This document shows, piece by piece, positions 4,072 through 64,000 of a stretch of 64,000 nt of DNA. The notes beneath the pieces are model-generated. The model was not told the origin of the DNA, ran no database searches, and saw only the letters and a program-made list of their open reading frames with translations. This DNA comes from a virus. Its lineage: Duplodnaviria > Caudoviricetes. The stretch is from the IMG/VR virus record IMGVR_UViG_3300031867_005677, positions 1 through 64,000 of that record. One strand, given 5' to 3'. The first letter of the stretch is position 1, and every line of letters starts with the position of its first letter. A program made the translations under genes and the position numbers.

Positions 4072-4487
4072 CCAAATATACCTTTAAAAAAATTACTAAA
4101 CCATTTTAAATCTGGATCTTTAGTTTTAAAATTATATGGCTTATGTTTATCAATAATTCCGCAATCTACATTGGTATTCCCAAAAATATGGTGTGCTGAT
4201 ATTTTTCCACAATCAGTTTTTGCATTACCTTGTATATTATTCTTACAAGTTACATTACCAGTATTAACAGTTACATTGCCTTCGACATTACCATTTATAG
4301 TTACATTACCAACATCATTTTTTATTTCACCACAATTTCCTTCAATCTTAATTTCAATTTTCTTTGATTCAAATTTATTAAGATCTTCAATTACTTCTCC
4401 ATTTACATATGCTTTACCATTAATAACTGAAATGCTACAACCATCAGGAGCAGTATATGTTTTCCCATTAATATTTACTACATTCAT
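4068..4487 (-). CDS. beta-helix repeat protein (bactofilin/DUF4097-like)
   Basis: Repeats GNCGEI / GNVTIN / GNVEGNVTVN / GNVTCK / GNAKTD / GNTNVD are typical of small right-handed beta-helices. Confidence 0.5.
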   Translation of the reverse strand: MNVVNINGKTYTAPDGCSISVINGKAYVNGEVIEDLNKFESKKIEIKIEGNCGEIKNDVGNVTINGNVEGNVTVNTGNVTCKNNIQGNAKTDCGKISAHHIFGNTNVDCGIIDKHKPYNFKTKDPDLKWFSNFFKGIFG

Positions 4488-4489
4488 GA

Positions 4490-4693
4490 TTATATTAATT
4501 TAAAATGTTTATTAAATTCATTATGTGAAAAATAATACCAATCATCAGGTGGCCAACCTATTTGATATTTGTTTTCTCCAGCAATCATTACATTATAAAC
4601 GTAAAAATATTCTACACCTTTTATGAAAGGTAAATATTTATATTTATTATAAACTTTTATTTTAACTTCTTTTATACAAATAGCATGTGACAT
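4490..4693 (-). CDS. hypothetical protein
   Basis: Intact ORF in operon. Confidence 0.6.
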   Translation of the reverse strand: MSHAICIKEVKIKVYNKYKYLPFIKGVEYFYVYNVMIAGENKYQIGWPPDDWYYFSHNEFNKHFKLI

Positions 4694-4697
4694 TTAA

Positions 4698-4958
4698 TTA
4701 TTTTCTCTCATAAAAAATTACTTTACCTTCCAAAACACCCATTCGTGAGCTTTCCTTAAATGTTTTTGTCTTAGGTACATAATTAGAATCCATAGGCTCC
4801 ACAAGATACCAAATATCATCACCCTTCCATGTTACTTCAACAAGCTTCTCTCCAGGATTAAGTTCAACCTTTGTTGTACCACCCATTGAACGAGTAATTG
4901 ACTGGTCACATGATGTCAAACACAAAAATGTAAATAAAATTACTAAAAGTTTCTTCAT
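4698..4958 (-). CDS. putative lipoprotein
   Basis: MKK + hydrophobic stretch + lipobox LTSC (Cys17). Confidence 0.7.
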   Translation of the reverse strand: MKKLLVILFTFLCLTSCDQSITRSMGGTTKVELNPGEKLVEVTWKGDDIWYLVEPMDSNYVPKTKTFKESSRMGVLEGKVIFYERK

Positions 4959-4962
4959 ATTT

Positions 4963-5388
4963 TTATTTAATTAAATAATCATAAATAGTTTTCCAATCTG
5001 TTTCTGGTTCAAACCCAAATTTATCATCAATACCAATATTAAAATAATATTTAGAAGATAAATCAAGTGTTTTTGGGTCTGTAGATTGGCGTTCAACTTC
5101 AGGATTGCAATTCAAATAATCAAAATAGATTTTATTTCTATTGAATACAACTCCATAATCCAATGCCGCTTGATTGGTTGAACTTGTCCAAAGTATCAAC
5201 TTAATATTTGGATCTTTTGATAGTAATTGCAATACTTCTTTTGCATAAGGATAAAACTCATAATTCTCTTTATTCAAATAACTAGGAACAAAAATAGTAC
5301 CATGAACATCAACTAGAATATAAATATAATCCCAATTTTTTTCTTTTGCACGAACAAATGCATTATCAAAAGCTTTTATTATATTCAT
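4963..5388 (-). CDS. HAD-superfamily-like hydrolase
   Basis: ILVDVHGTI (DxDGT-like), LILWTS, and IGIDDK motifs. Confidence 0.55.
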   Translation of the reverse strand: MNIIKAFDNAFVRAKEKNWDYIYILVDVHGTIFVPSYLNKENYEFYPYAKEVLQLLSKDPNIKLILWTSSTNQAALDYGVVFNRNKIYFDYLNCNPEVERQSTDPKTLDLSSKYYFNIGIDDKFGFEPETDWKTIYDYLIK

Positions 5389-5409
5389 ATATCATTAATT
5401 TACATAAAT

Positions 5410-5437
5410 AATATAGAAACTATTTTAAAAAATTCAA
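5410..5437 (-). promoter_or_regulatory. putative early promoter TTGAAT-N15-CTATATT
   Basis: Same motif and 16-nt spacing at 7 sites, each upstream of minus-strand genes. Confidence 0.7.
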
Positions 5438-5835
5438 TTTATATAAGCAAAATGTGCATATAATTCTTTAGTTGGTAAAGTACTTAAATATGATAATCCA
5501 ACTTCATTAATTGTTCCTTCACCACTTTCAATTTTTGTAATCATTCCGTTATCTATATGGACAATTGTACCTTGAGTAATATCCAAAATAGATTCATGTC
5601 CTTTATATACATGAAAATGATTGGTACAAATAAATTTACCAGAAATAGGTCTTAAATTTTCTTCTATATAATCATGAACAAAAGTATAAAACAAATCTCT
5701 ATCTGTATTATTTATATAATCATAACACATAACATTTGAACAATTTTCTTTTTGTTTCGCAACACCAAGAAAATATTCATCTGCCATTATTAGTTTCTTA
5801 ATAGCTTTCCACCTTTCAATAATTCTTTTAATCAT
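5434..5835 (-). CDS. hypothetical protein
   Basis: Intact ORF. N-terminus (WKAIKKLIMADEYFLG) resembles 47245..47445 (LKAIWYILTCDNFFLG). Confidence 0.65.
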   Translation of the reverse strand: MIKRIIERWKAIKKLIMADEYFLGVAKQKENCSNVMCYDYINNTDRDLFYTFVHDYIEENLRPISGKFICTNHFHVYKGHESILDITQGTIVHIDNGMITKIESGEGTINEVGLSYLSTLPTKELYAHFAYIN

Positions 5836-5840
5836 ATAAA

Positions 5841-6257
5841 TTAATCGATATTTTTTCTTAGCAATTCATCAATACATTGCTCTATTAAATCTTTCTTTTT
5901 ATTTAATTTATCAATTTCATCATTTGTATAATTAAGTTTTTCATATAAATTTTCTATAGCAGAATTATATGCTTCTTCATAAGTTGTATATATATCATAC
6001 TTATGAGAATAGCATTCATCTCCCCTATAATATTGATCAATAACAAACTCTCTTTCTGGTTCTGGTGTATTAGGTACTTTTTCTTTGATAATAATTGCTT
6101 CTTTAGAATAAATGTGTCTCCCAACATCGGGACCATTAGTCACCATATCCAAAATTGTTACCGGAATAATTGTAATTGGTTTATCATTAATATTATAACC
6201 TAAACAATATAAAATATCACCAACTTTACATTCATTTAATTTTTTGTAAGTTACCAT
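5841..6257 (-). CDS. hypothetical protein
   Basis: Intact ORF with C-terminal coiled coil. Confidence 0.7.
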   Translation of the reverse strand: MVTYKKLNECKVGDILYCLGYNINDKPITIIPVTILDMVTNGPDVGRHIYSKEAIIIKEKVPNTPEPEREFVIDQYYRGDECYSHKYDIYTTYEEAYNSAIENLYEKLNYTNDEIDKLNKKKDLIEQCIDELLRKNID

Positions 6258-6268
6258 ATTATATGTAA

Positions 6269-6712
6269 TTAAATAAATATTTGATCTACTTGTATGCCAT
6301 TCTTTTTAAGGAAATCTAGACCTTCAGTATTTCTATAAGTATCATTATAACAAACACGTTTAATACCAGCTTGAATAATAATCTTTGCACATTCAAAACA
6401 AGGACTTAATGTAACATAAAGTGTTGCATCTTCAGTAGAACTTAACCATTTAGCACACTTTGAAATAGCATTTGACTCAGCATGTAATACTTCTTTCTTT
6501 GTTACTAAATTACCATTTTCATCATGATATTCACAACAATTATCATAACCAGTAGGAGTACCATTATAACCCTGTGATATAATTTGCCCTTTAGGAGAAA
6601 CTATAAGACAACCTACTTTATTTCTTTCTGCATAACTTAATTCTGACAAAATCTTAGCCATTCGCATATAGACTTTATCATATTGAATTTGTCTTTCTTT
6701 ATTCATATTCAT
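6269..6712 (-). CDS. dCMP deaminase (ComEB-like)
   Basis: KVGCLIV, GYNGTP, HAESNAI, TLSPCFEC zinc-deaminase motifs. Confidence 0.95.
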   Translation of the reverse strand: MNMNKERQIQYDKVYMRMAKILSELSYAERNKVGCLIVSPKGQIISQGYNGTPTGYDNCCEYHDENGNLVTKKEVLHAESNAISKCAKWLSSTEDATLYVTLSPCFECAKIIIQAGIKRVCYNDTYRNTEGLDFLKKNGIQVDQIFI

Positions 6713-6732
6713 ATCTTTAAAATTACATATTT

Positions 6733-6760
6733 AATATAGTAAATTGAATCATAAATTCAA
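6733..6760 (-). promoter_or_regulatory. putative early promoter
   Basis: TTGAAT-N15-CTATATT upstream of dCMP deaminase. Confidence 0.7.
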
Positions 6761-6808
6761 TTATGCAATTATAAATTCCATATTTGTAATAGAAAAATAG
6801 AATAAAAT

Positions 6809-7414
6809 TCAATTGAACTTTATTCTATATAAATTACAACCAACAAAATTTCCTAATACAATCATAAAATAATTATATCCAACTTGTGGAGAACGTATAT
6901 TAGAAGCACACATATAAAATGCATCAGCTATTGAATGATAAAATCCCGCTAATATAAATACTGGTACTGCAAATAGTAATGGTAACCATTTTTCTTCTCT
7001 TGCAAATTTAACTGCAGTTGTCATTAAGAATCCACAAAATATTGCTCTTATAAATGCTTGCCATATATCTACTTGTGATCTTGATTCAATAATTATATTT
7101 GATTTATCAACTAAATCAGGTATTGCATATATTGCAATTATAGCAGTTAATGCACAACCTAAGAAATTATTACAAAATATAAACCAAAATAGTTTTCCAA
7201 TATCAGATATATTTTCAACAAATCCAGCTGTACCTGTATAAAGAGCATATTTATAATGTACTACTGTTATTAAACCAAATGTAAATAATATTGCTCCAGG
7301 AATTCCTCCACCAACCATTAAATTAACTATACATCCTATAGATATACAAAATCCAGCCAATATAGCACTAAATGATAAATTCCAACATTCTTTAGTAGTA
7401 TCAGTTTTAATCAT
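6809..7414 (-). CDS. formate/nitrite transporter (FNT) family channel
   Basis: AILAGFCISIG, FTFGL, LYTG, NFLG, RAIFCGFLM, FILAGFYHSIAD and LGNFVG motifs; about 6 hydrophobic helices. Confidence 0.85.
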   Translation of the reverse strand: MIKTDTTKECWNLSFSAILAGFCISIGCIVNLMVGGGIPGAILFTFGLITVVHYKYALYTGTAGFVENISDIGKLFWFIFCNNFLGCALTAIIAIYAIPDLVDKSNIIIESRSQVDIWQAFIRAIFCGFLMTTAVKFAREEKWLPLLFAVPVFILAGFYHSIADAFYMCASNIRSPQVGYNYFMIVLGNFVGCNLYRIKFN

Positions 7415-7415
7415 A

Positions 7416-7595
7416 TTATATTATATGAAATAATTTTAAGTTTGATTCTATATCATTTTCAATTTGTTTTAATCTATCATCGATATCCATCCATAGATGT
7501 GAGCCACAAAAATCATTATATAAAGGATTTCTAAGCAATTCTGTCTTTTTACGAATTGCTTTAATTTCATTTAATACTTCAATATCATTAATCAT
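7416..7595 (-). CDS. hypothetical protein (59 aa, below ORF-track cutoff)
   Basis: MINDIEVLNEIKAIRKK...LFHII* fills the gap exactly, with a TAATTATG junction. Confidence 0.6.
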   Translation of the reverse strand: MINDIEVLNEIKAIRKKTELLRNPLYNDFCGSHLWMDIDDRLKQIENDIESNLKLFHII

Positions 7596-7597
7596 AA

Positions 7598-8404
7598 TTA
7601 CTTTTCATATTTTTCATGAAATTTTTTTAACATATCTAAGAAATCCATACTAAAGAATCTAATAACCTCATTTACAAATTCTTCATCTATTGCATCATCA
7701 CCCATAGCCCCAGCAAATGCTCCTGCTATAGCTGCTTCTGTATCAGCATCTCCACCGAGACTTACCGCTTTACGTATACAATCAATATAATTCTTAGATT
7801 CTAACCAACAAATCAAAGATGCTGGTACTGAATTTTGACAAGTACATTCAAATTTATGATTTCTATATAATGATGCATAAGTTTTTTCCAAATTATATCC
7901 AAAATTTTCAGTTACCCATTTCTTAATATATTTCTTAGATCTTCCTTCTCTAATTAAATATATTACTGCCGCAACACATTGTGCACCTTTAATACCTTCT
8001 TCGTGATTATGAGTTACTTCAGCTGTTGTTTTTGCTAATTTTAATGTTTCATCAAGTGATTTAGCATACCAACCAACAGGAATAACACGCATTGCAGAAC
8101 CATTACCATATGAATTATAAGGTTCACGATCTTTATTACGAATCCATTCTTTAAATTTTGTCGCTAATCCATAATTAAACATACCATAATTAAATTTATT
8201 ACACCAATAATGAAGCTTATCAATATATTCATCTTTAGTATGTTTAGTATTCATTAACCAATCAGCAGTGGCAATAATAGCTATTGAATCATCAGATGCA
8301 TTAGCTCTATCAAAAATAAGATTAAAATTATAATCTCTAGTTTTCTTAATTTCATAAGAAAGACCAATACTCGAACCCACAATTGCTCCAATTATACCTT
8401 TCAT
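7598..8404 (-). CDS. ADP-ribosylglycohydrolase (DraG/ARH family)
   Basis: SDDS, SYGNGSAMR, THNH.EG, GGDADTEAAIAGA motifs. The first GD motif appears as GS. Confidence 0.9.
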   Translation of the reverse strand: MKGIIGAIVGSSIGLSYEIKKTRDYNFNLIFDRANASDDSIAIIATADWLMNTKHTKDEYIDKLHYWCNKFNYGMFNYGLATKFKEWIRNKDREPYNSYGNGSAMRVIPVGWYAKSLDETLKLAKTTAEVTHNHEEGIKGAQCVAAVIYLIREGRSKKYIKKWVTENFGYNLEKTYASLYRNHKFECTCQNSVPASLICWLESKNYIDCIRKAVSLGGDADTEAAIAGAFAGAMGDDAIDEEFVNEVIRFFSMDFLDMLKKFHEKYEK

Positions 8405-8406
8405 AA

Positions 8407-9129
8407 TTATTTCTTTTTATAAAATTGATGATGTTTATGTTTATTAAAATTTATTAAATTATTTATATTAATATCTTTGCTTCTAATTTCTTTTAAATTT
8501 TCTTTATCATTTAATACACTATTACATATAAATACAGTATAATCATTATTATAAGTATTATCTGTAAATATTTGTCCATTATAATTTACTTTTATAATAC
8601 CAATATCATATTCAATCAATTTTTGAAGATTACAATATTTATATATAAATTTAAATATATCTTGATGTATACTTATATCTGTTAATTTTTTATTAGTTGC
8701 AAACAAATATATTCTATTATTACATGATAATTCATTATTTAATATTTCTTTTTGTGTTTGTTTATCAGTAAAATAGTATAGTGAATAATTATTATCATAT
8801 ATTTCTTTAGATATATTATTTGAATATATCTTATCTATAAAAATACACCATTTATCTTTATTCTTACAATATGAGGAAACATAATAATTATAATTTAGTA
8901 AAATATTATTAAATTCAATAATATTATTATAATCTACATTAGATATTTTCAAATCAATAAAATTATAAATATTATCATTTAATATAATATAAAATGATTT
9001 ATTATTGGTTTTATCAATATAATCTACTATAGTAATATTTTCTTTATATTTATCCAATAAAGACTCTTTTAATAAATCAATATTATATATATTCAATAAT
9101 TGTTCACTTGTATCTAATATTTCATTCAT
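8407..9129 (-). CDS. hypothetical protein
   Basis: 240 aa, Asn/Ile-rich. Confidence 0.65.
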   Translation of the reverse strand: MNEILDTSEQLLNIYNIDLLKESLLDKYKENITIVDYIDKTNNKSFYIILNDNIYNFIDLKISNVDYNNIIEFNNILLNYNYYVSSYCKNKDKWCIFIDKIYSNNISKEIYDNNYSLYYFTDKQTQKEILNNELSCNNRIYLFATNKKLTDISIHQDIFKFIYKYCNLQKLIEYDIGIIKVNYNGQIFTDNTYNNDYTVFICNSVLNDKENLKEIRSKDININNLINFNKHKHHQFYKKK

Positions 9130-9131
9130 AA

Positions 9132-9665
9132 TTATATATATCGTTTATCTGTTTCATTAAATATAGGTTTAACATTTTTTATATTTACCATTTTACAAAA
9201 TTTACCAAATGTATTATATAACTGAATCTTTGGCAAGAAATGATTAATTATTAAGCAAAAATATATTTTACCTTGATGTTTAACTAATTTGAATTCATCA
9301 CCATATTGGTTTTGTATTGATATTGAATTATTATCTGGTAATGTCTTTAATAATTTAGTTGATTCTTTTATATAATGTGATGGTAACATATTAAGTATTG
9401 CAGTATGTTCATTAATATCTTTATTAACTAATGCCCTTGCTTTATATTTCTTGCCATTATGCTCCCATTCCTCATCAGTTTCAGCAAATTGTTTATTGAC
9501 AATCATACAAGCATTCTTATAGGTAATAACTGTCATATTAGAATCGTCATATGAATAAAGACGACGATCATCCCCATCTTTCCATGGAGACATTTGTAAT
9601 AGATATTTATCCATTACTTTATAAACATTACCTGTATATGACTGTAAATATTTATCTTGATCCAT
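9132..9665 (-). CDS. hypothetical protein
   Basis: First gene of the leftward operon; a CTATATT element lies upstream at about 9690. Confidence 0.7.
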   Translation of the reverse strand: MDQDKYLQSYTGNVYKVMDKYLLQMSPWKDGDDRRLYSYDDSNMTVITYKNACMIVNKQFAETDEEWEHNGKKYKARALVNKDINEHTAILNMLPSHYIKESTKLLKTLPDNNSISIQNQYGDEFKLVKHQGKIYFCLIINHFLPKIQLYNTFGKFCKMVNIKNVKPIFNETDKRYI

Positions 9666-9740
9666 CTTTAATTATTATTAATCTAATATAATATAGTATA
9701 ATATATTTGATAAATTAAAATAGAAATTTGTTACTAGAAA

Positions 9741-9754
9741 TTATTTTTAATAAA
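9741..9754 (+). promoter_or_regulatory. putative late promoter TTATTTTTAATAAA
   Basis: Identical 14-mer at 9741, 21116, 22038 and 54240, and one mismatch on the minus strand at 60824; always upstream of late/virion genes. Confidence 0.55.
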
Positions 9755-9772
9755 TAAATATTTAATTGATTT

Positions 9773-9913
9773 ATGCTTCGTGAACATGATGAAATATTTC
9801 CAGAAATACAACCTATTTCATATTTGAATTTAAAACCAATTGGAAATAATATTGATTTAAATAACTTAAATAAAAAAATAGTTACTTCAATTGAATGCCA
9901 TCAACAAATATAA
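9773..9913 (+). CDS. small hypothetical protein (46 aa)
   Basis: MLREHDEIFPEIQPISYLNLKP...; first ATG after the late-type motif; overlaps the next gene by 19 nt. Confidence 0.4.
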   Translation: MLREHDEIFPEIQPISYLNLKPIGNNIDLNNLNKKIVTSIECHQQI

Positions 9914-21115: not shown

Positions 21116-21129
21116 TTATTTTTAATAAA
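21116..21129 (+). promoter_or_regulatory. putative late promoter
   Basis: TTATTTTTAATAAA exact copy. Confidence 0.55.
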
Positions 21130-22037: not shown

Positions 22038-22051
22038 TTATTTTTAATAAA
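22038..22051 (+). promoter_or_regulatory. putative late promoter
   Basis: TTATTTTTAATAAA exact copy right after the terminator. Confidence 0.55.
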
Positions 22052-31776: not shown

Positions 31777-31803
31777 ATTTTTTCTATTTTTAATTACATA
31801 AAT

Positions 31804-31831
31804 AATATAGTAAATTTAATATAAAATTCAA
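31804..31831 (-). promoter_or_regulatory. putative early promoter
   Basis: TTGAAT-N15-CTATATTATTTATGTA. Confidence 0.7.
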
Positions 31832-38122: not shown

Positions 38123-38149
38123 TTAATAACTTATTTAAATTACATAAAT

Positions 38150-38177
38150 AATATAGACAATTGATAAAAAAATTCAA
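38150..38177 (-). promoter_or_regulatory. putative early promoter
   Basis: TTGAAT-N15-CTATATTATTTATGTA. Confidence 0.7.
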
Positions 38178-40241: not shown

Positions 40242-40269
40242 ACTATATATCTATTTAACATTCAAATAT

Positions 40270-40297
40270 AATATAGTATCAAATATATTAGATTCAA
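40270..40297 (-). promoter_or_regulatory. putative early promoter
   Basis: TTGAAT-N15-CTATATTATATTTG. Confidence 0.7.
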
Positions 40298-48222: not shown

Positions 48223-48245
48223 ATTATTTCATTATTTACATATAT

Positions 48246-48273
48246 AATATAGAAAATGTCCTTAAAAATTCAA
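48246..48273 (-). promoter_or_regulatory. putative early promoter whose -35 lies in a terminator loop (hairpin 48258-48283)
   Basis: TTGAAT-N15-CTATATT; arms GTCCTTAAAA / TTTTAAGGAC. Confidence 0.65.
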
Positions 48274-54239: not shown

Positions 54240-54253
54240 TTATTTTTAATAAA
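54240..54253 (+). promoter_or_regulatory. putative late promoter
   Basis: TTATTTTTAATAAA exact copy upstream of the neck gene. Confidence 0.55.
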
Positions 54254-54283: not shown

Positions 54284-55159
54284 ATGAATAATTGTAATTT
54301 AAATCCAAGTTCAAATATTAATATAGAACAAACAGCTAATAATTCTTCCCAATCAATGGAAGAATATTTAAAGAATAAACAATTACAAGAAGATCAAGTT
54401 GATTATCAATTCATACAAAGAATTATACAAGAATTAACTCAATCTTGTGCATTACCATTACCTATTCCAGCAGCTTCTATTCCACCACTTATTATTCAAG
54501 CAGCTCAATGGTTTTGGCAAAATTGTGATTTTTGTTTAGAAGAACGTATTTATCTTCTTAAGAATTCTGAATTTAAAAGATGTTGTAATAACAAATTGAT
54601 TAAATTACCACCGCAAATAATGTCGGTATTTGGTGTTTATAAAGTTAATCCAAATTATTACTATGGAGCTATGGGGGATTTCTCACTTGAACGTATGGTA
54701 ATCAATAATACTGTATTAGCTAGTGGTGCTGGCGGAAGTTTATCAGATACTTATGGAAATGGTTCTGGATATAATTTATCAGATATGATGGCTGGACTTT
54801 ATGAAATATCAACATTCAAATCTATGTTTGATGTTCCATTAACTTATAATTATAATGAATTTTCTAATTACTTAAATATTATCGGTGATTTAGGTCCATC
54901 TGATGTAGTTCTAAATACGATGGTCAGATGCAAAATACAAGATTTATATAAGAATTATTATTTCTTTAGATTATGTGTTTGCTTTGGGCTTAGGAGTATG
55001 GCTACGATAATGGGAGCATTCACATTTAGATTACCTGGTGGGAGTGAAATCAACTATCAAGTATTTAGAGATATGGCTAATGAAGAAATCCAAAAAATAG
55101 AAGAATGGGTACAAAAGAATCATTCAGCTGATTATTTCATAATGAGTAATACAGTTTAA
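54284..55159 (+). CDS. neck protein, T4 gp13-like
   Basis: ELTQSCALP...AAQWF...LEE, KLP..IMSVFGV, IMGAFTFRLPGGSEINY...ANEE. Confidence 0.75.
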   Translation: MNNCNLNPSSNINIEQTANNSSQSMEEYLKNKQLQEDQVDYQFIQRIIQELTQSCALPLPIPAASIPPLIIQAAQWFWQNCDFCLEERIYLLKNSEFKRCCNNKLIKLPPQIMSVFGVYKVNPNYYYGAMGDFSLERMVINNTVLASGAGGSLSDTYGNGSGYNLSDMMAGLYEISTFKSMFDVPLTYNYNEFSNYLNIIGDLGPSDVVLNTMVRCKIQDLYKNYYFFRLCVCFGLRSMATIMGAFTFRLPGGSEINYQVFRDMANEEIQKIEEWVQKNHSADYFIMSNTV

Positions 55160-55204: not shown

Positions 55205-58200
55205 TTATTCTTCAATTCTAATATATGGGAATGACCTCCAAGATGTTGATTTACTTAATGGGTGTGCATGTTGTGATGGGTGGATTTCCCACATTTGTGA
55301 TGAACTATATTCTGTAGTTGTCCATAATGCATTAGAACCTAAACTAGTAAGTAAATCTACTTTACAATCTTCTGGATATCTATTTGCAATATCACTAAAT
55401 AAATTAGTAAGACGTTGGAAATTATAACTTAAGAAGAATACCTCGGCAAATGCTGGTATATACCAATCACCATAATTAGTTGATTTAGTCTTATATTTAT
55501 ATGCACAAGCACACATTGGTGAAAATCTTAAATTAGTATTATTTATAATATTTCCTGATTCATTAAACCAATTTGATATATTATGTTCATCTATATTACC
55601 ATTTTCATCCATAATACTATATTGTTCACCAAATGCTTTAATAATATTCATTGTATTTTCCCAACCATTCCAATCAGAAACAGAACTATTTTCATCTATT
55701 AAATTACTATTAAATGTATCATCATCATTCAATAGATTAACATTATATATATTTCCTGATGCTGATGCAGGATCATAATACCATCCTCTATCATTAGGAG
55801 CAGGCCATTTGAATTGTCCAGCTAAAGTTGCATCACCATAATTATTTGGATAAGAATTTTGGTAATTATGATAATCGGTTTGAGGATATATCATATTTTT
55901 AGTTAATGTATGTCCTTCATCACTATAACATATATATGGATAATTCTTTAATGTTGGTATATCAATATTATAGAATCCAAATGCTGGAACACTATTAGAA
56001 CTTTGTGAACCACTATTACTAAACTTGAATTCCCCATTATTATCTTTTACCGTTGATAACATTTTAAGGCCAATGTAAATAGAATACTTTTGTTCTGGTC
56101 CAAAATATCCATTGTTCAATATCTTAATTCCAATAGGTCTCCAACCTAAAGAAGGATCAACAATTTCTTTTGATTTAAATCTTTGTCCATTTTCATTTTC
56201 ATAAAGAATAGTAAAGTCAGAAATTGTATCTTTAATATCAAATGTTTCTTCTTCAATAATAGGTTCAATAATTTCAGGGTATTTAATATCTTGATATTTA
56301 TCTAATATTCTATATTGTGCTATAGCATTATGTAGTATATTATTTAATCCATTAATAGTATATTGTAATTTAATATTATAATATCCTGGAGCATATAAAT
56401 TATCAATATTATCATTTGTGATAATTGTCAAGTTAGTATTTGAATTAACATCATAAACACTATTAATATCATATATTCTTGATACTGTCCATTTATTATT
56501 CAAATCAATATTGAATTGATAATCATTATTATTGACTCCAACAATAACTAAATCATCTTTATTGAATTGATTATACCCATTAGCTTTCTTAATAACCATT
56601 CTATTAATTAAGAACTTATCAACACTATAATCATTATATACAATACGATATCCACCAATTATATGTTCTTTATCATGAATATTCAATAAATCAGCATCAG
56701 GATAAGATGCAATTGGGTATTGGGATATTGCTACTATATACCATTCTTTATCATCATGCATCAAATAATAATCATAAATAACATTATTTTCTTTTAATTG
56801 GTATTTGTAAGATAAATCAGAGTTAAAAAATGTTTGATATAATGATGTATAATCTGCATTAGGATCATATTGCATTTTACCATTATTTTTTAATGGAGCA
56901 GTTTGTGTGGTATTTATTTGATTTATAGAATACCAATATAAATCTACGGTAGTATGATCTACTCGGGTATTACCAAGTTTAGTATATAAATATTTGAATG
57001 CACGTCCATTATAACGATATAATGTATCAATTACTTCACCATTATTTATAATATCAAATTTGTTAATACTTCCTTCAATATCATCTAAAATTGGTAAATC
57101 ATATTCAATACCTTCATAAACCATATGATAATGAATTAATAAATTATTAATATTCATAGGTTCTAAAGGTATATTATCTCTATAAAATCTTATAGTTGAA
57201 TCAGGGTATTCTTCTACTATATCCCCTAAATAATTTCTCCAACCTTTGATTATATTATTTATTCCACCATTATAAGGAGACCATTCTTCCCAACTTTGGC
57301 CAATTGATAAACTATAATCTTCTAATTTTATAATATAATCTATACCACCCCATTCTTCAACATATATATCAAATATATGAATTCTATTATAATATTTAGT
57401 ATTATATGGAACTTTTAAAATGTTTGAATAATATTTCTTATAGAATTCATACATCTTATGTTGATCAGGGTTATTTGTACCATCATCAGTCTCTAATAAC
57501 TTATCTATAAATGTCAATAATTTATCATTATCTTCACTATCTTTACCTTTAAATAATGTATTAATTGTAACTAAATCTGGTTCATAGATAAATGAATTGA
57601 ATTTTAATGGAGACAATGATCTTAATTGTTTAAATGGATAATAAACACTATCATCTTTTGTAATTTCATATTTATATTCCAATCTACCTAAATCTAGATA
57701 AATATTTGGAGTAACAATTCTAAAATCATAATTAAACCATTTATCATTTACCATTAAACTTAATCTAAAATATGCCTTTTCATAATCAATATTATTATTT
57801 AATAACCTTGGTATTAATATAAAATTCATATAATATTGATTACTATTTTGGTAATAATTAAAGTTATTATCATCTACTAAATAAATAGTTTGAATATCAT
57901 ATCTATCTTTAGAATCTATCCTTATATATTTATCATAATATTTAATATAATTTTCATTAGATAAATCATCAGATTCCGAAAAATCAGATTTATAGAATTT
58001 TTCTTTATAAATATATCTATCTCCTAATTTAATATAATGACCTGATGGATCTTGATTAATTGTTGTAGCTGTTAATATAAGCTTACAATTAAAATAATAT
58101 TCAGAAATTTTTAAATAACGATTATCAATATAATCAGATAAATCTTGAATATCTTCATTCTTAACTATACTAAAATGAGTAGCATCAAATCTATTAGATA

Positions 58201-60805
58201 ATTTACCAGAATTTTCTCCAATCAATTCATAGAAATAATTCATTTTAACATAATTACCATATTTATCAATGAAATAATCACCTTTATCATTTTTTGAATA
58301 AAGTTTAGAATATCTATTATATCTATTATCATATGATAATGGTTTTAAATTTTTATATCTTTCAAAACTATAAAAATTTGCATTATCATAATCATCAGTT
58401 AATTCTACTATAGTACTATTATTCTTATATTTATAGAAGTAATTTATTTTAACATATTCTCCATCAATATATAAATATAAACCATTTGATTTCTTTTCAT
58501 ATTCATAATCATCATATGTTATTGTAATAGGTATAGTTACACAATTTTCATTAACATAATACAAATCTTCTATATTAGATGCATTATAATTACTAAATTC
58601 ATTAAATTTATCATCTATAATATGATTACTTTGCATAAATAATAGTCTATTTGTATCAGGGAATATAACACGGATATTATCTGATATTCTAGGTATATAA
58701 ATTGGATTATCTACAATTGTTGTAAATCCAATCGTAGACAATTTAGTAGTATTAGCATAGACTTTATGTGCTATAGAAGCTCGATTAATATTAATATGAA
58801 CAGGTAAGAAATATTGTTGATAATAATATTTAAGACAATCTAATTTAAGTGCCAATTCATTAAATATAAAATTATAATAAGGTTTATAGAATGTAATATC
58901 ATCTTTAACTACTTCTACATTCTTACTAAATAAATCTTCTAATTTTGGTTTACCTTCACCAATAAAAACATTATCATAATTTTGTTGATAGTTTTCATTA
59001 ATTTCTTTATTATCTAAAACTGTTAAAGATATATTATTCGTCTTATTGAAATATTTAAATGTTTCTTTAATATCATTATTAATATCAAAATAATCTAATA
59101 CAAATTGATTTTGGAATTCATTATCTGTTTTTATAAGTTGACTAATGGCAATATGGTTTTTCCAACCAAACCATTTTAATGAATTCATCATTGATTTAAA
59201 ATTACCAGTTTCGCCTTTAATATTCATATAATTTAAAAGCAATTCTTTTAACTTATTCTTCAATAATTTTTCATCTGCATTTTTTGAATAAAATGATGAA
59301 CTATAAATAGCTTTAAGAATTTCTTTAGGTAAACGTATACCCATATTCTTACCATTTATAATTAATTCTTCACATTCATCTATAAATGTACAACCAACAG
59401 TGATTGGTGTAAATATATTTGCTAATTCATACTCTGTTGTTGTAATTGTCTTACCTTCAGTATTTTCAGCAATTTGTCTATTATCTACATCTAACCAAAA
59501 ATCACGAGTTTTCCCCAAATAAACTGGTGTTTGCCTAATAGTATAACCAATAATATTACCTTTAGAATCACGATAATTATAAGGTTTCCAAATATAATTT
59601 GTTTCACCATTAATTGTTTGAGGTTCATATTGTGCATTAATTTCTAATAAGTGTTGAACATGATATTTATCTTCATTATTTACATATTGTTCATCTCCTG
59701 GATAAGTACTTTGGCAAAATTCATAATAATCAGAACCATATTCTGTTTCATCATCATCATCCATTTCTATATAACCTTCATGGTTAGTACATAAAACAGA
59801 TCCACAATAGTTACACCCATCATATATTTCACCTTCAAATACATACCAACCGGCAGGAAGTTCATTCTCTAATCTATAAATATAATGGTATGAATCAGTA
59901 AACATATTACCAAATAATTGCCAATTACCATTATTATCTTGTGACAAGAAATTCCTTATACGTTTATATTGATTTGCTTGTTCTGGAGCATCTTTATCAT
60001 ATGCTGTTGATAGAATATTATTTGTTCTTACATATTGTACATAAGGATCTCCACTATATAATATTTCATGTTTATTAAATCCAGCATTAAGCCCTTGTGT
60101 ATATTTTTCATTATTAAAACCTACATTAATTACTAATACTGGTGATGATGACTTTGTTTGAGTAGCAATATCATAACTATAAATTTTAATAGGGCTTAAT
60201 GATTGTTTAATTATATAATCATAATATTCTTCACGAGTATAATGTTTAGTAATAATTTTTGAAGTTTCTTTTTGATATGTATACTTAATAGTAATATTAT
60301 TTAAAAATGTACCTTCTATTTCAGAAAACCCAACAACATAAAATGGAAACATATAGAATTTATTATTAGTGGTATTTGAAGAAACTACAAGATTAATATT
60401 ATCTTCATTGGAATTAGCTCCTTCAATATCAAAATAAAAATCATCTAAGGTCAACTTATCTACAAATTGAGACTTATCTAAACCTACTGGCTTAGAAATA
60501 CTATCTGATTGTTCTAATTGAGATTGTAAATATTTAGGACTTATAAGTTTATAGAATTGAGAACTATTCGAAATCTCTAATGAAAAATATGATTTAATTT
60601 CATCGTTATCATCAGTATATATACTATCTTTTATAAATTTTGCATCTAATAAAAATCTAACTGGTTTAATATAATAATTATTTATTGATACTGATGAATC
60701 TTTTAACCAGAATATATAATCTCCTTCAACATATTCTAAGTTAATAGGTTTATCTTCATAAGAAGGTAAGCTAAAAATATGACCTGTACTGTCTATAAAT
60801 TCCAT
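55205..60805 (-). CDS. large baseplate/tail protein (gp7/gpI-like wedge segment) with C-terminal CLec/DUF1566-like module
   Basis: LLNYMNIKGETGNFKSMMNSLKWFGW (about 59160-59230); C-terminus GDWYIPAFAEV...LWTTTEYSSSQMWEI; late-type motif upstream. Confidence 0.6.
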   Translation of the reverse strand: MEFIDSTGHIFSLPSYEDKPINLEYVEGDYIFWLKDSSVSINNYYIKPVRFLLDAKFIKDSIYTDDNDEIKSYFSLEISNSSQFYKLISPKYLQSQLEQSDSISKPVGLDKSQFVDKLTLDDFYFDIEGANSNEDNINLVVSSNTTNNKFYMFPFYVVGFSEIEGTFLNNITIKYTYQKETSKIITKHYTREEYYDYIIKQSLSPIKIYSYDIATQTKSSSPVLVINVGFNNEKYTQGLNAGFNKHEILYSGDPYVQYVRTNNILSTAYDKDAPEQANQYKRIRNFLSQDNNGNWQLFGNMFTDSYHYIYRLENELPAGWYVFEGEIYDGCNYCGSVLCTNHEGYIEMDDDDETEYGSDYYEFCQSTYPGDEQYVNNEDKYHVQHLLEINAQYEPQTINGETNYIWKPYNYRDSKGNIIGYTIRQTPVYLGKTRDFWLDVDNRQIAENTEGKTITTTEYELANIFTPITVGCTFIDECEELIINGKNMGIRLPKEILKAIYSSSFYSKNADEKLLKNKLKELLLNYMNIKGETGNFKSMMNSLKWFGWKNHIAISQLIKTDNEFQNQFVLDYFDINNDIKETFKYFNKTNNISLTVLDNKEINENYQQNYDNVFIGEGKPKLEDLFSKNVEVVKDDITFYKPYYNFIFNELALKLDCLKYYYQQYFLPVHININRASIAHKVYANTTKLSTIGFTTIVDNPIYIPRISDNIRVIFPDTNRLLFMQSNHIIDDKFNEFSNYNASNIEDLYYVNENCVTIPITITYDDYEYEKKSNGLYLYIDGEYVKINYFYKYKNNSTIVELTDDYDNANFYSFERYKNLKPLSYDNRYNRYSKLYSKNDKGDYFIDKYGNYVKMNYFYELIGENSGKLSNRFDATHFSIVKNEDIQDLSDYIDNRYLKISEYYFNCKLILTATTINQDPSGHYIKLGDRYIYKEKFYKSDFSESDDLSNENYIKYYDKYIRIDSKDRYDIQTIYLVDDNNFNYYQNSNQYYMNFILIPRLLNNNIDYEKAYFRLSLMVNDKWFNYDFRIVTPNIYLDLGRLEYKYEITKDDSVYYPFKQLRSLSPLKFNSFIYEPDLVTINTLFKGKDSEDNDKLLTFIDKLLETDDGTNNPDQHKMYEFYKKYYSNILKVPYNTKYYNRIHIFDIYVEEWGGIDYIIKLEDYSLSIGQSWEEWSPYNGGINNIIKGWRNYLGDIVEEYPDSTIRFYRDNIPLEPMNINNLLIHYHMVYEGIEYDLPILDDIEGSINKFDIINNGEVIDTLYRYNGRAFKYLYTKLGNTRVDHTTVDLYWYSINQINTTQTAPLKNNGKMQYDPNADYTSLYQTFFNSDLSYKYQLKENNVIYDYYLMHDDKEWYIVAISQYPIASYPDADLLNIHDKEHIIGGYRIVYNDYSVDKFLINRMVIKKANGYNQFNKDDLVIVGVNNNDYQFNIDLNNKWTVSRIYDINSVYDVNSNTNLTIITNDNIDNLYAPGYYNIKLQYTINGLNNILHNAIAQYRILDKYQDIKYPEIIEPIIEEETFDIKDTISDFTILYENENGQRFKSKEIVDPSLGWRPIGIKILNNGYFGPEQKYSIYIGLKMLSTVKDNNGEFKFSNSGSQSSNSVPAFGFYNIDIPTLKNYPYICYSDEGHTLTKNMIYPQTDYHNYQNSYPNNYGDATLAGQFKWPAPNDRGWYYDPASASGNIYNVNLLNDDDTFNSNLIDENSSVSDWNGWENTMNIIKAFGEQYSIMDENGNIDEHNISNWFNESGNIINNTNLRFSPMCACAYKYKTKSTNYGDWYIPAFAEVFFLSYNFQRLTNLFSDIANRYPEDCKVDLLTSLGSNALWTTTEYSSSQMWEIHPSQHAHPLSKSTSWRSFPYIRIEE

Positions 60806-60823
60806 TAAATTTACATATGTTTA

Positions 60824-60837
60824 TTTAATAAAAATAA
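60824..60837 (-). promoter_or_regulatory. putative late promoter (back to back with variant TTATTTTTAAATATAAA at 60848-60864 +)
   Basis: TTATTTTTATTAAA on the minus strand. Confidence 0.5.
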
Positions 60838-60880
60838 GACTATAAAATTATTTTTAAATATAAATTGATAATAATATTTT

Positions 60881-61795
60881 ATGAAAAGCTTCAAACAAAC
60901 ATATTTTGTTGAAAATGTTAATACTATAAATGGTTTTGTTATTCTAAAACCAGAATTTCTAGATCATGAAGAAGACTTTCTAAAACTTCTTAAAAATAAT
61001 GGATGGGATATTATTCAAAAACAAAAAAGAACTCTATCTAATGATGAAGCAGCAGAACTTTATAAAATGCATAAGGATAAAGATTTCTATAAGCCTTTAT
61101 GCAAATATATGAGTTCTGGTGATTGTCTTTGTTGTATGTGTCATAAAGATTGTAATGATCCTATTAAAGATATGGATGCTATTAAAGACAAGGTTCGTAA
61201 GACATGGGGAAAAGATGAAATGAAAAATGGTATGCATTCATCAGATAGCTTAGATAATGTCAATCGTGAATCTAAACTTATATTTGAAAAGAAAGTTGTA
61301 GAATCTGAAAGTGATGATTTGCAAATAAAAATGGAAGCATCAGAAATCAAAACATTAGTAGAAATGTTAAAGAATGCATTAGCTGAAGAAATATTAGCTT
61401 GGTATCATTATACAATATGTGCTCCATTCTTGACAGGTAAAATGCGTCCGGATGTGGAGAAACTATTTATAGAAACTGCTAAAGATGAATTTGAAGATCA
61501 TGCTTGTTGGTTAATGGAAAGACTTCGTCAATTGGGAGAAGATCCAGGAGAATTATTAGATCCAAATCAGATGAATACTATTGCAAAACATAAATATATC
61601 ATGCCTTCATTTGATACTAAGAAAGCTATTCAAAATAATATTGAAGCGGAAAAGGGAGCTATAGAGACTTATACAGAATTAGAAACATTCACTAAAGACA
61701 AAGATATAGTAACACATGCTAAAATAGAAGAGATATTAGCTGATGAACAAGAACATCTTAAATTATTAAATAAATTAGCTGAAGATATAAAATGA
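60881..61795 (+). CDS. nucleoside diphosphate kinase fused to DPSL/bacterioferritin-like domain
   Basis: NDK: FVILKPE, HKDKDFY..L..YMSSG, KNGMHSSDS (His119). Ferritin-like: ALAEEILAWYHY, DEFEDH, EAEKGAI, KDIVTH, ILADEQEH. Confidence 0.88.
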   Translation: MKSFKQTYFVENVNTINGFVILKPEFLDHEEDFLKLLKNNGWDIIQKQKRTLSNDEAAELYKMHKDKDFYKPLCKYMSSGDCLCCMCHKDCNDPIKDMDAIKDKVRKTWGKDEMKNGMHSSDSLDNVNRESKLIFEKKVVESESDDLQIKMEASEIKTLVEMLKNALAEEILAWYHYTICAPFLTGKMRPDVEKLFIETAKDEFEDHACWLMERLRQLGEDPGELLDPNQMNTIAKHKYIMPSFDTKKAIQNNIEAEKGAIETYTELETFTKDKDIVTHAKIEEILADEQEHLKLLNKLAEDIK

Positions 61796-62325
61796 AAAAT
61801 CTAAAAGATATAATTATTGAGAAGTTAAAAATCAATTCTAATTCTAAAGTTAATAATAAATTTGACCCAGAAAGATTAACTGATCATAGATTTGTTTTAT
61901 ATGATTCTCAATCTTATGAAAATGAAGATGATGAAGCGGTTGATTGGAAAGATTGTGAAGATTCTTTAATGTCTTATAATGACCAAGCCGCTGGTTTTAT
62001 TACATGTGATAACCCAATATCTAAAATTAAAAATTATAGTAAAGATATAAGTTTAATTGATGAGGATTTATTGTCATTAAGAGAAAGAATTATTACCGGT
62101 AAAGATCTTGGTTATGAAATTAGATATGAATATGGGCATTTAGAATTTGATTGTATTAATTCTGGTTCTAGACGTACATTCTATATTTATGGATTACCCA
62201 AAAATGCTTATGATAAAATAATTACTTGGTGGGAATCTCCAGATGAATTAGAAGGAGACACTGATGAAGAAAAATTAGCTTTCTTATTTGAAGAAGGAAA
62301 TATAATAGCAATTGAAGATAAATGA
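61792..62325 (+). CDS. putative internal protein (CTS-like leader + KLKINS motif)
   Basis: Starts MKNLKDIIIE-KLKINSNSKVN. Confidence 0.55.
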   Translation: MKNLKDIIIEKLKINSNSKVNNKFDPERLTDHRFVLYDSQSYENEDDEAVDWKDCEDSLMSYNDQAAGFITCDNPISKIKNYSKDISLIDEDLLSLRERIITGKDLGYEIRYEYGHLEFDCINSGSRRTFYIYGLPKNAYDKIITWWESPDELEGDTDEEKLAFLFEEGNIIAIEDK

Positions 62326-63197
62326 AAACTTTAAAAGAAATTATTTTAATATCTAAAAAGCCATCATCTATAGATAATTATATACAAGAAAAACTCAAAA
62401 TTGGATCAAAGACAAAGGTAAATATGTATACTTGTCAACCAAAAGATAAAAATGAACTTAAAAGTATAATAAAAGAACGTCTAGATAAAGATAAGAATGC
62501 TGACTTAAATGATATAGATGTATCTAAAATAAATGATATGTCTACTTTATTTAATCAATTAGATCCTCACAATATAGACTTAAGTGAATGGGATGTATCT
62601 AATGTTATTGATATGAATGAAATGTTTTTAGGATGTGATAATTTTAATTGTGATTTATCTAAATGGGATATATCAAAAGTCAAATGTATGATAAGTATGT
62701 TTAGATACTGTGAAAATTTTAATGGTGATATATCTAAATGGGATGTATCTAATGTTACTGATATGAGTAATATATTTAATAATTGTGAAAAATTTAATTG
62801 TGATTTATCTAAGTGGGATGTATCAAATGTTACTAATATGAAATGTATGTTTTTCCATTGTAATAATTTCAATTTTGACTTAAGTGAATGGGATGTATCT
62901 AATGTTACTGATATGAATGAAATGTTTTTTGGGTGTAATAATTTTAATTCAGATTTAAGTGAATGGGATGTATCTAATGTTACTAATATGAGTGATATGT
63001 TTGGTAATTGTGAAAAATTTAATTGTGATTTATCTAAGTGGGATGTATCAAATGTTACTAATATGAAATGTATGTTTTATAATTGTAATAATTTTAATTC
63101 TGACTTAAGTAATTGGGATGTTTCAAATGTTAAAAATATGTATTTTATGTTTGATGGGTGTAAATCACTAAAAAATAAACCAAGTTGGTACAAATGA
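62322..63197 (+). CDS. DUF285 / BspA-type repeat protein with CTS-like leader
   Basis: Eight 25-aa WD[VI]S[NK]V..M..[MI]F..C..FN.DLS units; leader MKTLKEIILI...NYIQE-KLKIGSKTKVN. Confidence 0.85.
   Translation: MKTLKEIILISKKPSSIDNYIQEKLKIGSKTKVNMYTCQPKDKNELKSIIKERLDKDKNADLNDIDVSKINDMSTLFNQLDPHNIDLSEWDVSNVIDMNEMFLGCDNFNCDLSKWDISKVKCMISMFRYCENFNGDISKWDVSNVTDMSNIFNNCEKFNCDLSKWDVSNVTNMKCMFFHCNNFNFDLSEWDVSNVTDMNEMFFGCNNFNSDLSEWDVSNVTNMSDMFGNCEKFNCDLSKWDVSNVTNMKCMFYNCNNFNSDLSNWDVSNVKNMYFMFDGCKSLKNKPSWYK
62575..63170 (+). repeat. 75-bp in-frame tandem repeats
   Basis: Includes an about 70-bp identical direct repeat at 62781 and 63006 (225 bp = 3 units apart). Confidence 0.9.
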
Positions 63198-63658
63198 AAA
63201 CTTTAAAAGAAATAATCATTGAAAAATTAAAAATTTCTTCTAATTCTAAAGTTATTGGTGAATTAGATAATTTTGATAATTTTGCCAAAGAATATGATGG
63301 TGAATATTCTGAAGGAGTAATTTTATTTAATGAAGATAGTCTTTTTTATAAGAAAGCTATAGATATTATATCAAAAAGATATAGTGGATTTAAATCAAGA
63401 TTAATTTGTGATAGAATAGCAGGTAATTCAATGACAAAAAAATATAGATATTATGTTTCAATATTCACATCACAAAGAATAAATGTATCATGTGTTGACA
63501 GAGGTCAGGCAAAATCAGTATCATTTATGATGATTCAAAATATGGAATCCGATAAACAAATTAAATTAACTTATGGTGTTAACGATCCTGATGAATCTAT
63601 AGAGAAAACCTATGTAAATATAATACTTAATAATATCATCAATGGAAAATTTGATTAA
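63194..63658 (+). CDS. putative internal protein (start revised to ATG 63194)
   Basis: Starts MKTLKEIIIE-KLKISSNSKVI; ATGA overlap with the previous stop. Confidence 0.55.
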   Translation: MKTLKEIIIEKLKISSNSKVIGELDNFDNFAKEYDGEYSEGVILFNEDSLFYKKAIDIISKRYSGFKSRLICDRIAGNSMTKKYRYYVSIFTSQRINVSCVDRGQAKSVSFMMIQNMESDKQIKLTYGVNDPDESIEKTYVNIILNNIINGKFD

Positions 63659-64000
63659 TATAATTGAAAAATTAAAAATTAGTTCAAAAACAAAAGTATC
63701 TACAGAAATAGAAATGGAAACAATAGATGATTTATGTAAAAAATATAATTGTGAATTCCATCATGATTCAACTAATGATACTTTTAATTATAATTATTTA
63801 ACTCATGATAATAAACAAATAACACTTATAATTGAAGATATAATAAAATATTCATGGACAGCTTGGAAACAATTAATTCAAAATACCGAAAAATATATTG
63901 ATAAATTTAATGATAACCAAAAATATCAATTAAAGATTAGAAAAAACAATGATGCTAAATTAATTGTTATTGATTGTGAAGGAAAATTAAATAATAAATA
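63642..64000 (+). CDS. putative internal protein, 3' truncated by window edge (absent from ORF track)
   Basis: Starts MENLINIIE-KLKISSKTKVS and stays open to the window end. Confidence 0.55.
   Translation, partial: MENLINIIEKLKISSKTKVSTEIEMETIDDLCKKYNCEFHHDSTNDTFNYNYLTHDNKQITLIIEDIIKYSWTAWKQLIQNTEKYIDKFNDNQKYQLKIRKNNDAKLIVIDCEGKLNNK

Follow-up and report, generated by a model that had tools for sequence, protein, structure and literature searches.

We found a gene that joins a nucleoside diphosphate kinase (NDK) to a DPSL-type ferritin in a tailed phage (Caudoviricetes) known from the IMG/VR record IMGVR_UViG_3300031867_005677, of which positions 1 to 64,000 were analysed and are hereafter called the window. 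The gene lies on the plus strand (60881..61795) and encodes, in 304 amino acids plus a stop codon, a leader, the NDK, a junction and the ferritin, as delineated by open reading frame (ORF) analysis, Pfam, homologues and a structural model. Judging from sequence comparisons, we give an even chance to the reading that this fusion is a late, head-targeted polyprotein of two cargo proteins, which the prohead protease trims in a jumbo myophage whose head is of T4 type. Cargo packaged under the T4 capsid-targeting sequence (CTS) and DPSL mini-ferritins are already known kinds. Our literature search retrieved no paper that unites an NDK, a ferritin-like domain and a phage in one protein, and none on a CTS-like tag in PAU- or Lak-type phages or elsewhere outside the T4-like phages.

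The fusion is a genuine gene. Its ORF opens at the first ATG downstream of a stop, and Pfam recognizes an NDK domain at residues 19-138 (66.8 bits, cut-off 27) and a Ferritin domain at residues 161-304 (51.6 bits, cut-off 24.5), the latter overlapped by a Rubrerythrin match. An AlphaFold2 model with a mean predicted local distance difference test (pLDDT) score of 85.9 contains two confident domains and is disordered only at residues 1-13 and 138-146, the proposed leader and linker. Among 5.8 billion proteins searched, 204 relatives were found, and the NDK-ferritin architecture recurs in at least 73 clusters (90% identity), which range from 93% down to 37% identity to the fusion, are mutually related rather than independent, and stem from ENA, Logan, JGI and NCBI assemblies with contigs that reach 380 kb. 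The same architecture is found in an ESM Atlas cluster of 55 members, 75% of which are viral. The protein belongs to no family in a PHROGs search, and a tblastn search of cultured phages (INPHARED) returned four weak partial matches and no NDK-ferritin fusion. Some relatives encode NDK and DPSL as separate genes, which would favour a sequencing or assembly error, or a frameshift, that merged two neighbours. The recurrence of the same fusion in so many clusters, from many independent samples and pipelines and with co-varying linkers, excludes a misassembly and refutes such an artefact, so that the read-level joining of two genes against which the initial annotation had cautioned retains a practically negligible probability.

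Leader, junction and head morphogenesis

The first eleven residues, MKSFKQTYFVE (60881..60913, plus strand), form a CTS-like leader that was delimited by model disorder and conservation and is one residue longer than the consensus of the phage clade. This consensus comprises ten residues, M-K-x-L/I-x-x-Y/F-I-x-E, followed by Ser or Ala. A census of gene N-termini with the pattern M[KN]x[LI]xxx[IVF]xE found the leader on 13 of the 30 plus-strand genes of the window and on none of the 58 minus-strand genes (Fisher p = 1e-7), with an expectation by chance, from the internal frequency of the motif, of 0.3 across all 88 genes. Positions that the pattern leaves unconstrained fit as well: of 46 leaders, 38 have Tyr or Phe at position 7 and 23 have Ser or Ala at position 11. 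Genes for baseplate proteins, helicases, NAD enzymes and chaperones are untagged. G001, a related record of 410 kb and 97% completeness, bears the leader on 91 of 511 ORFs, with about 2 expected, and about 20 of these genes stand immediately upstream of its prohead protease and capsid genes. In G001 the tag is found, apart from the NDK, on a NUDIX hydrolase, a HAD hydrolase, a P-loop protein and a DPSL ferritin with the start MKKFQEFNSE, among others.

The clade leader matches the start of the T4 internal proteins (IPs) IPII and IPIII, MKTYQEFIAE-A (cut after Glu). In the T4 CTS, targeting depends on residues 4 and 7 and processing on residues 8 and 10, where an Asp at position 10 blocks cleavage (PMC9026906); these four positions are the ones conserved in the clade leader. 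IPI, IPII, IPIII and Alt of T4 share with the clade a ten-residue tag with MK(T/S), a hydrophobic residue at 4, an aromatic residue at 7, Ile at 8, Glu at 10 and then a small residue (PMC9026906, PMC3012670). In both systems the tagged proteins are otherwise unrelated, evolve fast and are encoded in clustered arrays, and both a protease of the gp21 family and a capsid protein of the gp23 family are encoded. The clade differs from T4 in that the proposed cargo of the present gene consists of two housekeeping-type enzymes joined as a polyprotein, that dozens of genes per genome carry the tag, many of which continue into a basic EKLKI.SKSKV segment, and that the phages, AT-rich and of jumbo size, have PAU and Lak as relatives and lie outside the Straboviridae.

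The same leader occurs on the unfused counterparts of both halves. All 15 stand-alone NDK orthologues found in IMG/VR start with the canonical MK[ST]LxxYIxE[SA] (e.g. MKTLTQYIQES and MKSLKDFINES), and most of the 18 stand-alone DPSL orthologues inspected also bear a leader (e.g. MKNLSEYVNEAS and MKSLSQTVSEAS). Several subclades of the fusion have a canonical leader (MKSLNQFIYE). In the subclade to which the window belongs, it is one to two residues longer (MKSFKQTYFVE, MKSFKKTYIINE), with the aromatic-hydrophobic-x-Glu order kept, and a leader end of the form hydrophobic-x-Glu (h-x-E) is kept in 69 of the 73 fusion clusters.

The junction between the halves, KVVESESDD (residues 138-146; 61292..61318, plus strand), was delimited from the model and alignments. 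It has a pLDDT below 50 and contains VVE (61295-61303) with a candidate cut after Glu141. In 60 of the 73 fusion clusters, an h-x-E lies at most eight residues from the end of the NDK, while the remaining linker is hypervariable and spans 0 to about 60 residues. Stand-alone NDKs stop at ...KLIFK, which corresponds to about residue 136 of the fusion, so that the subsequent KVVE lies outside the NDK. Local alignment places the fusion's KKVVE-SESDDLQIK on the stand-alone DPSL leader LVSE-ASVSELQIK, whose end reads V-x-E followed by Ala or Ser. Because of this alignment, the fusion appears to have retained the processing end of the ferritin's own leader, i.e. the equivalents of T4 residues 8 and 10, together with the segment that follows the leader, while the targeting half was apparently lost, its role now being supplied by the leader of the NDK. 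This homology, though indirect, is the strongest new evidence for a polyprotein meant to be cut.

Candidate machinery for such processing is encoded by the relatives of the source phage. The source contig (75,989 bp, 25% G+C, CheckV completeness 27%) encodes Hsp70, helicases and a gp6-like baseplate wedge, and is syntenic gene by gene with 184-226 kb of G001. G001 and two further relatives (G002, of 376 kb, and G003) encode a Peptidase_S77 domain, the family of T4 gp21, with 38.7-46.8 bits (cut-off 27), and in all three a Gp23-family major capsid protein directly follows the protease ORF. The near-complete relatives are AT-rich jumbo phages of 0.37-0.41 Mb. The cultured phages with capsid proteins most similar to theirs (30-38% identity) are Sphingomonas (Sphingobacterium) phage PAU, the Prevotella Lak megaphages, the Tenacibaculum phages pT24 and PTm1, and Chryseobacterium phage MA9V. 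On the strength of the relatives' protease and capsid genes, the synteny with G001 and these nearest cultured capsids, the source is assigned to the jumbo myophages with T4-type head morphogenesis, in a PAU- and Lak-related clade with Bacteroidota as its known hosts.

In cultured PAU itself (JQ362498, L053 11116-18800), ten genes of the head module (gp142-146, 149, 150, 152, 153 and 154) start MK[ST][LI]xx[LY]xE, among them gp142 and gp154, which the depositors named 'internal capsid protein', and the scaffold gp152; one PAU leader reads MKTLTQLYEA. PAU could serve as a test model for the tag. Several of the tagged PAU genes continue with KLNE, a motif that also occurs near the N-terminus of the PAU capsid protein (AKLNES). 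The gp21-family protease domain of the uncultured relatives forms the N-terminal part of an ORF of 537-581 residues (G002 L025:1423-3036 and L029:87-1034; G001 L024:1414-3111). The C-terminal part of about 315 residues is coiled-coil-like, has its own in-frame Met (MKELKEAIDKL) and resembles a nested protease/scaffold arrangement like that of lambda C/Nu3, and the scaffold of these phages appears to be this C-terminal part. Their capsid proteins (L028:925-2721, L029:1132-2892 and L027, in G001-G003) keep ...AAIHEIHES... in the N-terminal region, and the I-x-E-S within it, about 40 residues in, is a candidate T4-type propeptide cleavage site.

The kinase and ferritin halves

The NDK domain occupies residues 17-137 (60929..61291, plus strand), according to Pfam (PF00334), alignment and Foldseek, and the catalytic His119 is encoded at 61235-61237. 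The initial annotation had described an intact NDK with this histidine, which we located in the motif NGMHSSDS. Taking as criterion the His within N-x-x-H-G/S-S-D and the equivalents of Lys12, Tyr52, Arg105, Asn115, Ser120 and Glu129, we found the full set in the phage protein: K23, Y61, R106, N116, H119, S121, D122 and E130 are invariant in all 33 members of the NDK family and in all 25 aligned fusions. By sequence, the half matches the NME5/NME7 group best (NME5, 1e-11). Foldseek gave template modelling (TM) scores of 0.71-0.81 to solved NDKs, with 0.78-0.81 to those of bacteria and Mimivirus.

Compared with NME5, about ten residues of the alpha3/Kpn region are deleted, a trait of the entire phage NDK family. 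The phosphate-binding residues of this region in canonical NDKs are Arg88 and Thr94, which belong to the alpha3 helix and the Kpn loop. The column of Lys89 holds a Lys in 22 of the 33 members, while the equivalent of Arg88 is uncertain, and this Lys could stand in for the phosphate contact of Arg88/Thr94. The invariance of eight catalytic and binding residues despite the shortened Kpn region argues for a working phosphotransferase. The domain shares its fold, the N-x-x-H-[GS]-S-D histidine and the shortened alpha3/Kpn region with the short-loop NDKs, i.e. that of Mimivirus (3evw, TM 0.81) and the NME5/NME7 group II, whereas canonical NDKs have the roughly ten residues that are absent here at the site of the Arg88 helix. 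Unlike the short-loop NDKs, the phage proteins of the near subclade contain a cysteine-rich strand, CLCCMCHKDC, which together with C74 falls within residues 74-91. In distant members hydrophobic residues take its place, and with conservation limited to the near subclade, the cluster C74, C85, C87 and C91 was rejected as a metal site of the family.

The second half (residues 153-304; 61337..61792, plus strand) is predicted to be a DPSL-type mini-ferritin with a four-helix bundle, on the basis of Pfam Ferritin/Rubrerythrin matches and the PDB entries 2vzb, 8w1d and 2clb. The di-iron DPSL-like domain proposed by the initial annotation is borne out by both sequence and fold: the best PDB match by sequence is the dodecameric DPSL of B. 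fragilis (2vzb, E 2.4e-19), followed by PA4880 and the S. solfataricus DPSL, and the AlphaFold2 model of the monomer superimposes on 2vzb with a TM score of 0.85, a root-mean-square deviation of 1.2 A and 36% identity. All 25 aligned fusions retain the di-iron ligands E169/E170, E203, H207, E257, E289 and H292, which fall on the ligand motifs of 2vzb and PA4880 in the alignment. DPSL cages have 23 symmetry and preferentially use H2O2 as oxidant. Solved structures of PA4880 include a dimer and a dodecamer.

Three features define the DPSL proteins: a cage of 12 subunits, a ferroxidase centre of bacterioferritin type within the bundle, and a pair of conserved cysteines (PMC12532284). The phage domain has the ferroxidase centre and lacks the two-cysteine hallmark: ARCKY and SERCAIL of 2vzb align with AKHKY (H237) and AEKGAIE (G259), and both positions are non-Cys across the aligned family. 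Since the ligands are present and both cysteines are replaced, we file the domain, by its sequence, as a DPSL-type mini-ferritin and not as a thioferritin. With the DPSL proteins of B. fragilis (2vzb), S. solfataricus (2clb), P. furiosus and P. aeruginosa (PA4880, 8w1d/8w1e) it has in common the four-helix bundle and the Glu/His di-iron ligands of bacterioferritin type within it. It differs from them not only in the missing cysteines, but also in helix B, which reads ExxxH instead of ExxH through a one-residue insertion, in being either fused to an NDK or stand-alone with a phage leader, and in the cysteine-rich inserts of some homologues.

These metallothionein-like cysteine runs (e.g. CCCCCG and CGCQCGCQC) are inserted at three places in the phage DPSL homologues, namely in the linker (P0063, P0069-P0075), in the B-C loop (G001 239407-240078) and at the C-terminus (P0139, P0146), and suggest extra metal binding. 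In other metagenomic sequences, DPSL-like domains also occur C-terminal to NUDIX proteins of 576-760 residues (P0198, P0205, P0229, P0231) and, in P0077, after a Rep3_N domain. The NUDIX-ferritin proteins lack the MKxL leader and were for that reason treated as neutral on the question of whether co-targeted cargoes fuse.

Genomic neighbourhood

As the initial annotation had noticed, the fusion gene heads a run of leader-tagged genes. We found these to be joined by 4-bp ATGA overlaps of start and stop. This downstream operon (61792..64000, plus strand, continuing to 65359 on the contig; from ORFs and Pfam) has gene starts at 61792, 62322, 63194, 63642, 64138 and 64817, which mostly overlap the preceding stop in this manner, and its genes, one of which encodes a DUF285 protein, share the start MKxLKEIIxEKLKIxSKSKV. 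They correspond to ORFs in large tandem arrays of G001, where about 45 leader ORFs (L032-L052) start MKKLNQFITEKFRLSKDNL...YNYHPKTK (for example at 231570-237754, 250339-257188, 266330-272186 and 291393-295736). The DUF285 gene of the window (62322-63197) matches one of these array ORFs with 45% identity.

Upstream, a divergent intergenic region of 75 bp (60806..60880), which was scanned for motifs, separates the fusion gene from the minus-strand gene of a protein of 1866 residues (55205..60805). This protein starts MEFIDSTGHIFSL, is of the MEFID...GHIFSL type and proved a constant neighbour among the relatives. Its homologue adjoins the NDK or NDK-DPSL gene in L003-L007, L012 and G001, and of all relatives examined, only the 380-kb contig L001 lacks a giant protein of this type beside the gene; tagged arrays usually lie alongside. 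Neither the 1866-residue protein nor a second giant protein of 2821 residues (66680-75145 of the contig, plus strand) has a Pfam or PHROG family; both are conserved in G001. Further upstream follows a neck or head-tail adaptor-like gene (54284..55159, plus strand; phrog_211, head-tail adaptor Ad2, E 4.3e-07).

An early-promoter-like motif, TTGAAT-N14-19-CTATATTA, was found by a motif scan in six copies in the window, with 0.13 expected, each just upstream of a minus-strand gene (5409-5437, 6732-6760, 31803-31831, 38149-38177, 40269-40297 and 48245-48273, all on the minus strand). The 75 bp upstream of the fusion gene do not contain it. With the neck-like gene, the giant proteins and the absence of an early-type promoter, the locus has a structural and late character. 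Four exact plus-strand copies of another motif, TTATTTTTAATAAA, lie 30-150 bp upstream of operons of structural or leader genes (9741-9754, 21116-21129, 22038-22051 and 54240-54253). With one mismatch allowed, its 6 matches compare with 3.1 expected, which is not significant, and we did not rely on it as a late promoter. On contig L001 (380 kb, ENA), nrdD is split into an ATP-cone and two NRDD pieces by NUMOD3-type homing-endonuclease-like ORFs (4398-9794), and nrdG adjoins nrdD, directly upstream of and divergent from the NDK-ferritin gene.

The proposed packaging, its rivals and its biological meaning

The packaging model would run as follows. The gene would be expressed late, and the 11-residue leader would act like a T4 CTS that brings the protein into the core of the assembling prohead. 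There, the gp21-family prohead protease would remove the leader after Glu11 and probably also cut after Glu141, between VVE and Ser, at the relic of the leader that the ferritin had before the fusion. The released short-Kpn-loop NDK would transfer phosphate via His119, and the released mini-ferritin, which by homology would form a 12-subunit cage, would oxidize Fe(II) with H2O2 or O2 at its buried di-iron centre. Afterwards, the products may remain beside the DNA in the head or accompany it into the cell. One can speculate that the mini-ferritin limits Fenton damage to virion DNA in a phage of anaerobes, and that the NDK, NUDIX and HAD enzymes act on nucleotide pools or signals at entry; a benefit through Fenton protection or through countering the depletion of deoxynucleoside triphosphates (dNTPs) is equally speculative.

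Comparable loading of proteins into a head or shell is known from other systems. Encapsulins with ferritin-like cargo (EncFtn/Flp) enclose an iron oxidase in an HK97-fold shell by means of a short terminal targeting peptide, which is C-terminal and uncleaved, and their shell holds no DNA. The shell proposed here, by contrast, would be a genuine virion head, entered by means of an N-terminal tag that a protease could remove. The giant myophages phiKZ and SPN3US load their heads with many proteins that a gp21-related protease trims at x-x-E (PMC5694885, PMC10052503). Their propeptides differ from the present leader in usually exceeding 100 residues with the motif A/S/G-x-E, and no NDK or ferritin cargo has been reported for them.

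Several observations weigh against packaging. The gene's own leader is atypical, with Glu at position 11 and Thr at position 7 (MKSFKQTYFVE followed by Asn), albeit with the Y-F-x-E spacing to the Glu retained. The capsid-targeting character that the initial annotation ascribed to it is supported by a non-random motif that matches the T4 CTS and by the gp21-family protease of the relatives, while the individual sequence departs from the consensus. The start and the junction KKVVE-SESDD are present as that annotation had them, and its view of the linker as cleavable at VVE has gained independent comparative support from the alignment with the leader cleavage site of stand-alone DPSL proteins; h-x-E is, on the other hand, a short motif in a proteome rich in Lys, Ile and Glu. 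In G001, 18% of the ORFs are tagged, and about 45 of them, with EKF after the leader, belong to one paralogous family that includes DUF285. With so many ORFs carrying the leader, the count is high for head cargo and the motif may serve another purpose. Pfam Peptidase_S77 and Gp23 were sought on the source contig with no match, a result that for a 27% fragment is uninformative about the whole phage. The TTATTTTTAATAAA motif occurs in 60806..60880 as a one-mismatch copy on the minus strand, the plus strand having a partial match only. On L001, the fusion gene stands back to back with the split nrdD and nrdG. Further points are that an assembled 12-mer cage could not leave via the tail tube, and that an NDK would be without substrates inside a capsid.

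The genomic setting on L001 suits the main rival, a cytoplasmic auxiliary enzyme that works uncleaved in the infected cell, where the NDK would balance the pools of NTPs and dNTPs and the mini-ferritin would remove Fe(II) and H2O2. This would shield nucleotides and DNA as well as enzymes sensitive to oxygen, among them the anaerobic ribonucleotide reductase. The N-terminal motif would then be a clade-wide feature of late genes that is unrelated to packaging. We regard this explanation as possible, albeit somewhat doubtful. Both domains look catalytically intact by their conserved residues, the position divergent from nrdD and nrdG provides a context of nucleotide metabolism, the leaderless NUDIX-DPSL fusions suggest that nucleotide enzymes and mini-ferritins are functionally linked irrespective of packaging, and the metallothionein-like inserts of several homologues point to metal handling. 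In the window and in L003-L007, however, the gene is situated away from genes of nucleotide metabolism and tied to the giant protein and the leader arrays. Moreover, a general function of the motif sits poorly with its absence from all 58 minus-strand genes, including those for helicases and NAD enzymes, and a cytoplasmic enzyme would leave the processing end of a leader that is retained at the junction unexplained.

Alternatively, the protein might be packaged or assembled with its linker uncut, so that a DPSL dodecamer displays twelve NDK domains on its outside and the h-x-E at the junction is a structural cap or a leftover. Selection for the linkage as such is suggested by the persistence of the fusion in lineages with as little as 37% identity, and linkers of up to about 60 residues would let the NDK domains pair on the surface of the cage; T4 gp21, too, leaves many L/I-x-E sites uncut. 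Yet related phages use separate leader-tagged genes, which implies that the linkage is not required, and the model places the junction Glu in a segment predicted to be disordered and accessible. We consider an uncut cage unlikely.

If the fusion is indeed a packaged and trimmed polyprotein, the T4 capsid-targeting principle, so far a speciality of the Tevenvirinae, would reach uncultured jumbo phages related to PAU and Lak, and metabolic enzymes and a mini-ferritin could be virion cargo. The relic site at the junction exemplifies the merger of two tagged cargo genes into a polyprotein. For experimental purposes, the ten-residue tag might be used to direct foreign proteins into the heads of phages that infect Bacteroidota-type hosts, and the NDK-DPSL junction offers a compact substrate for protease tests. 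In its widest and still tentative form, the reading would be that a clade of giant phages, whose hosts are anaerobes of the gut or rumen, packs an iron-oxidizing, ferritin-like nanocage together with NDK, NUDIX and HAD enzymes into the DNA-filled head by means of a T4-like tag and polyprotein processing, which would make the virion an encapsulin-like antioxidant compartment that guards the genome against Fenton damage on contact with oxygen, or a kit of nucleotide and iron enzymes that is delivered at infection. A ferritin-like cage in a phage head would, if confirmed, be a natural counterpart of the iron compartments of encapsulins, and suggests a route by which phages of strict anaerobes may shield their DNA in air.

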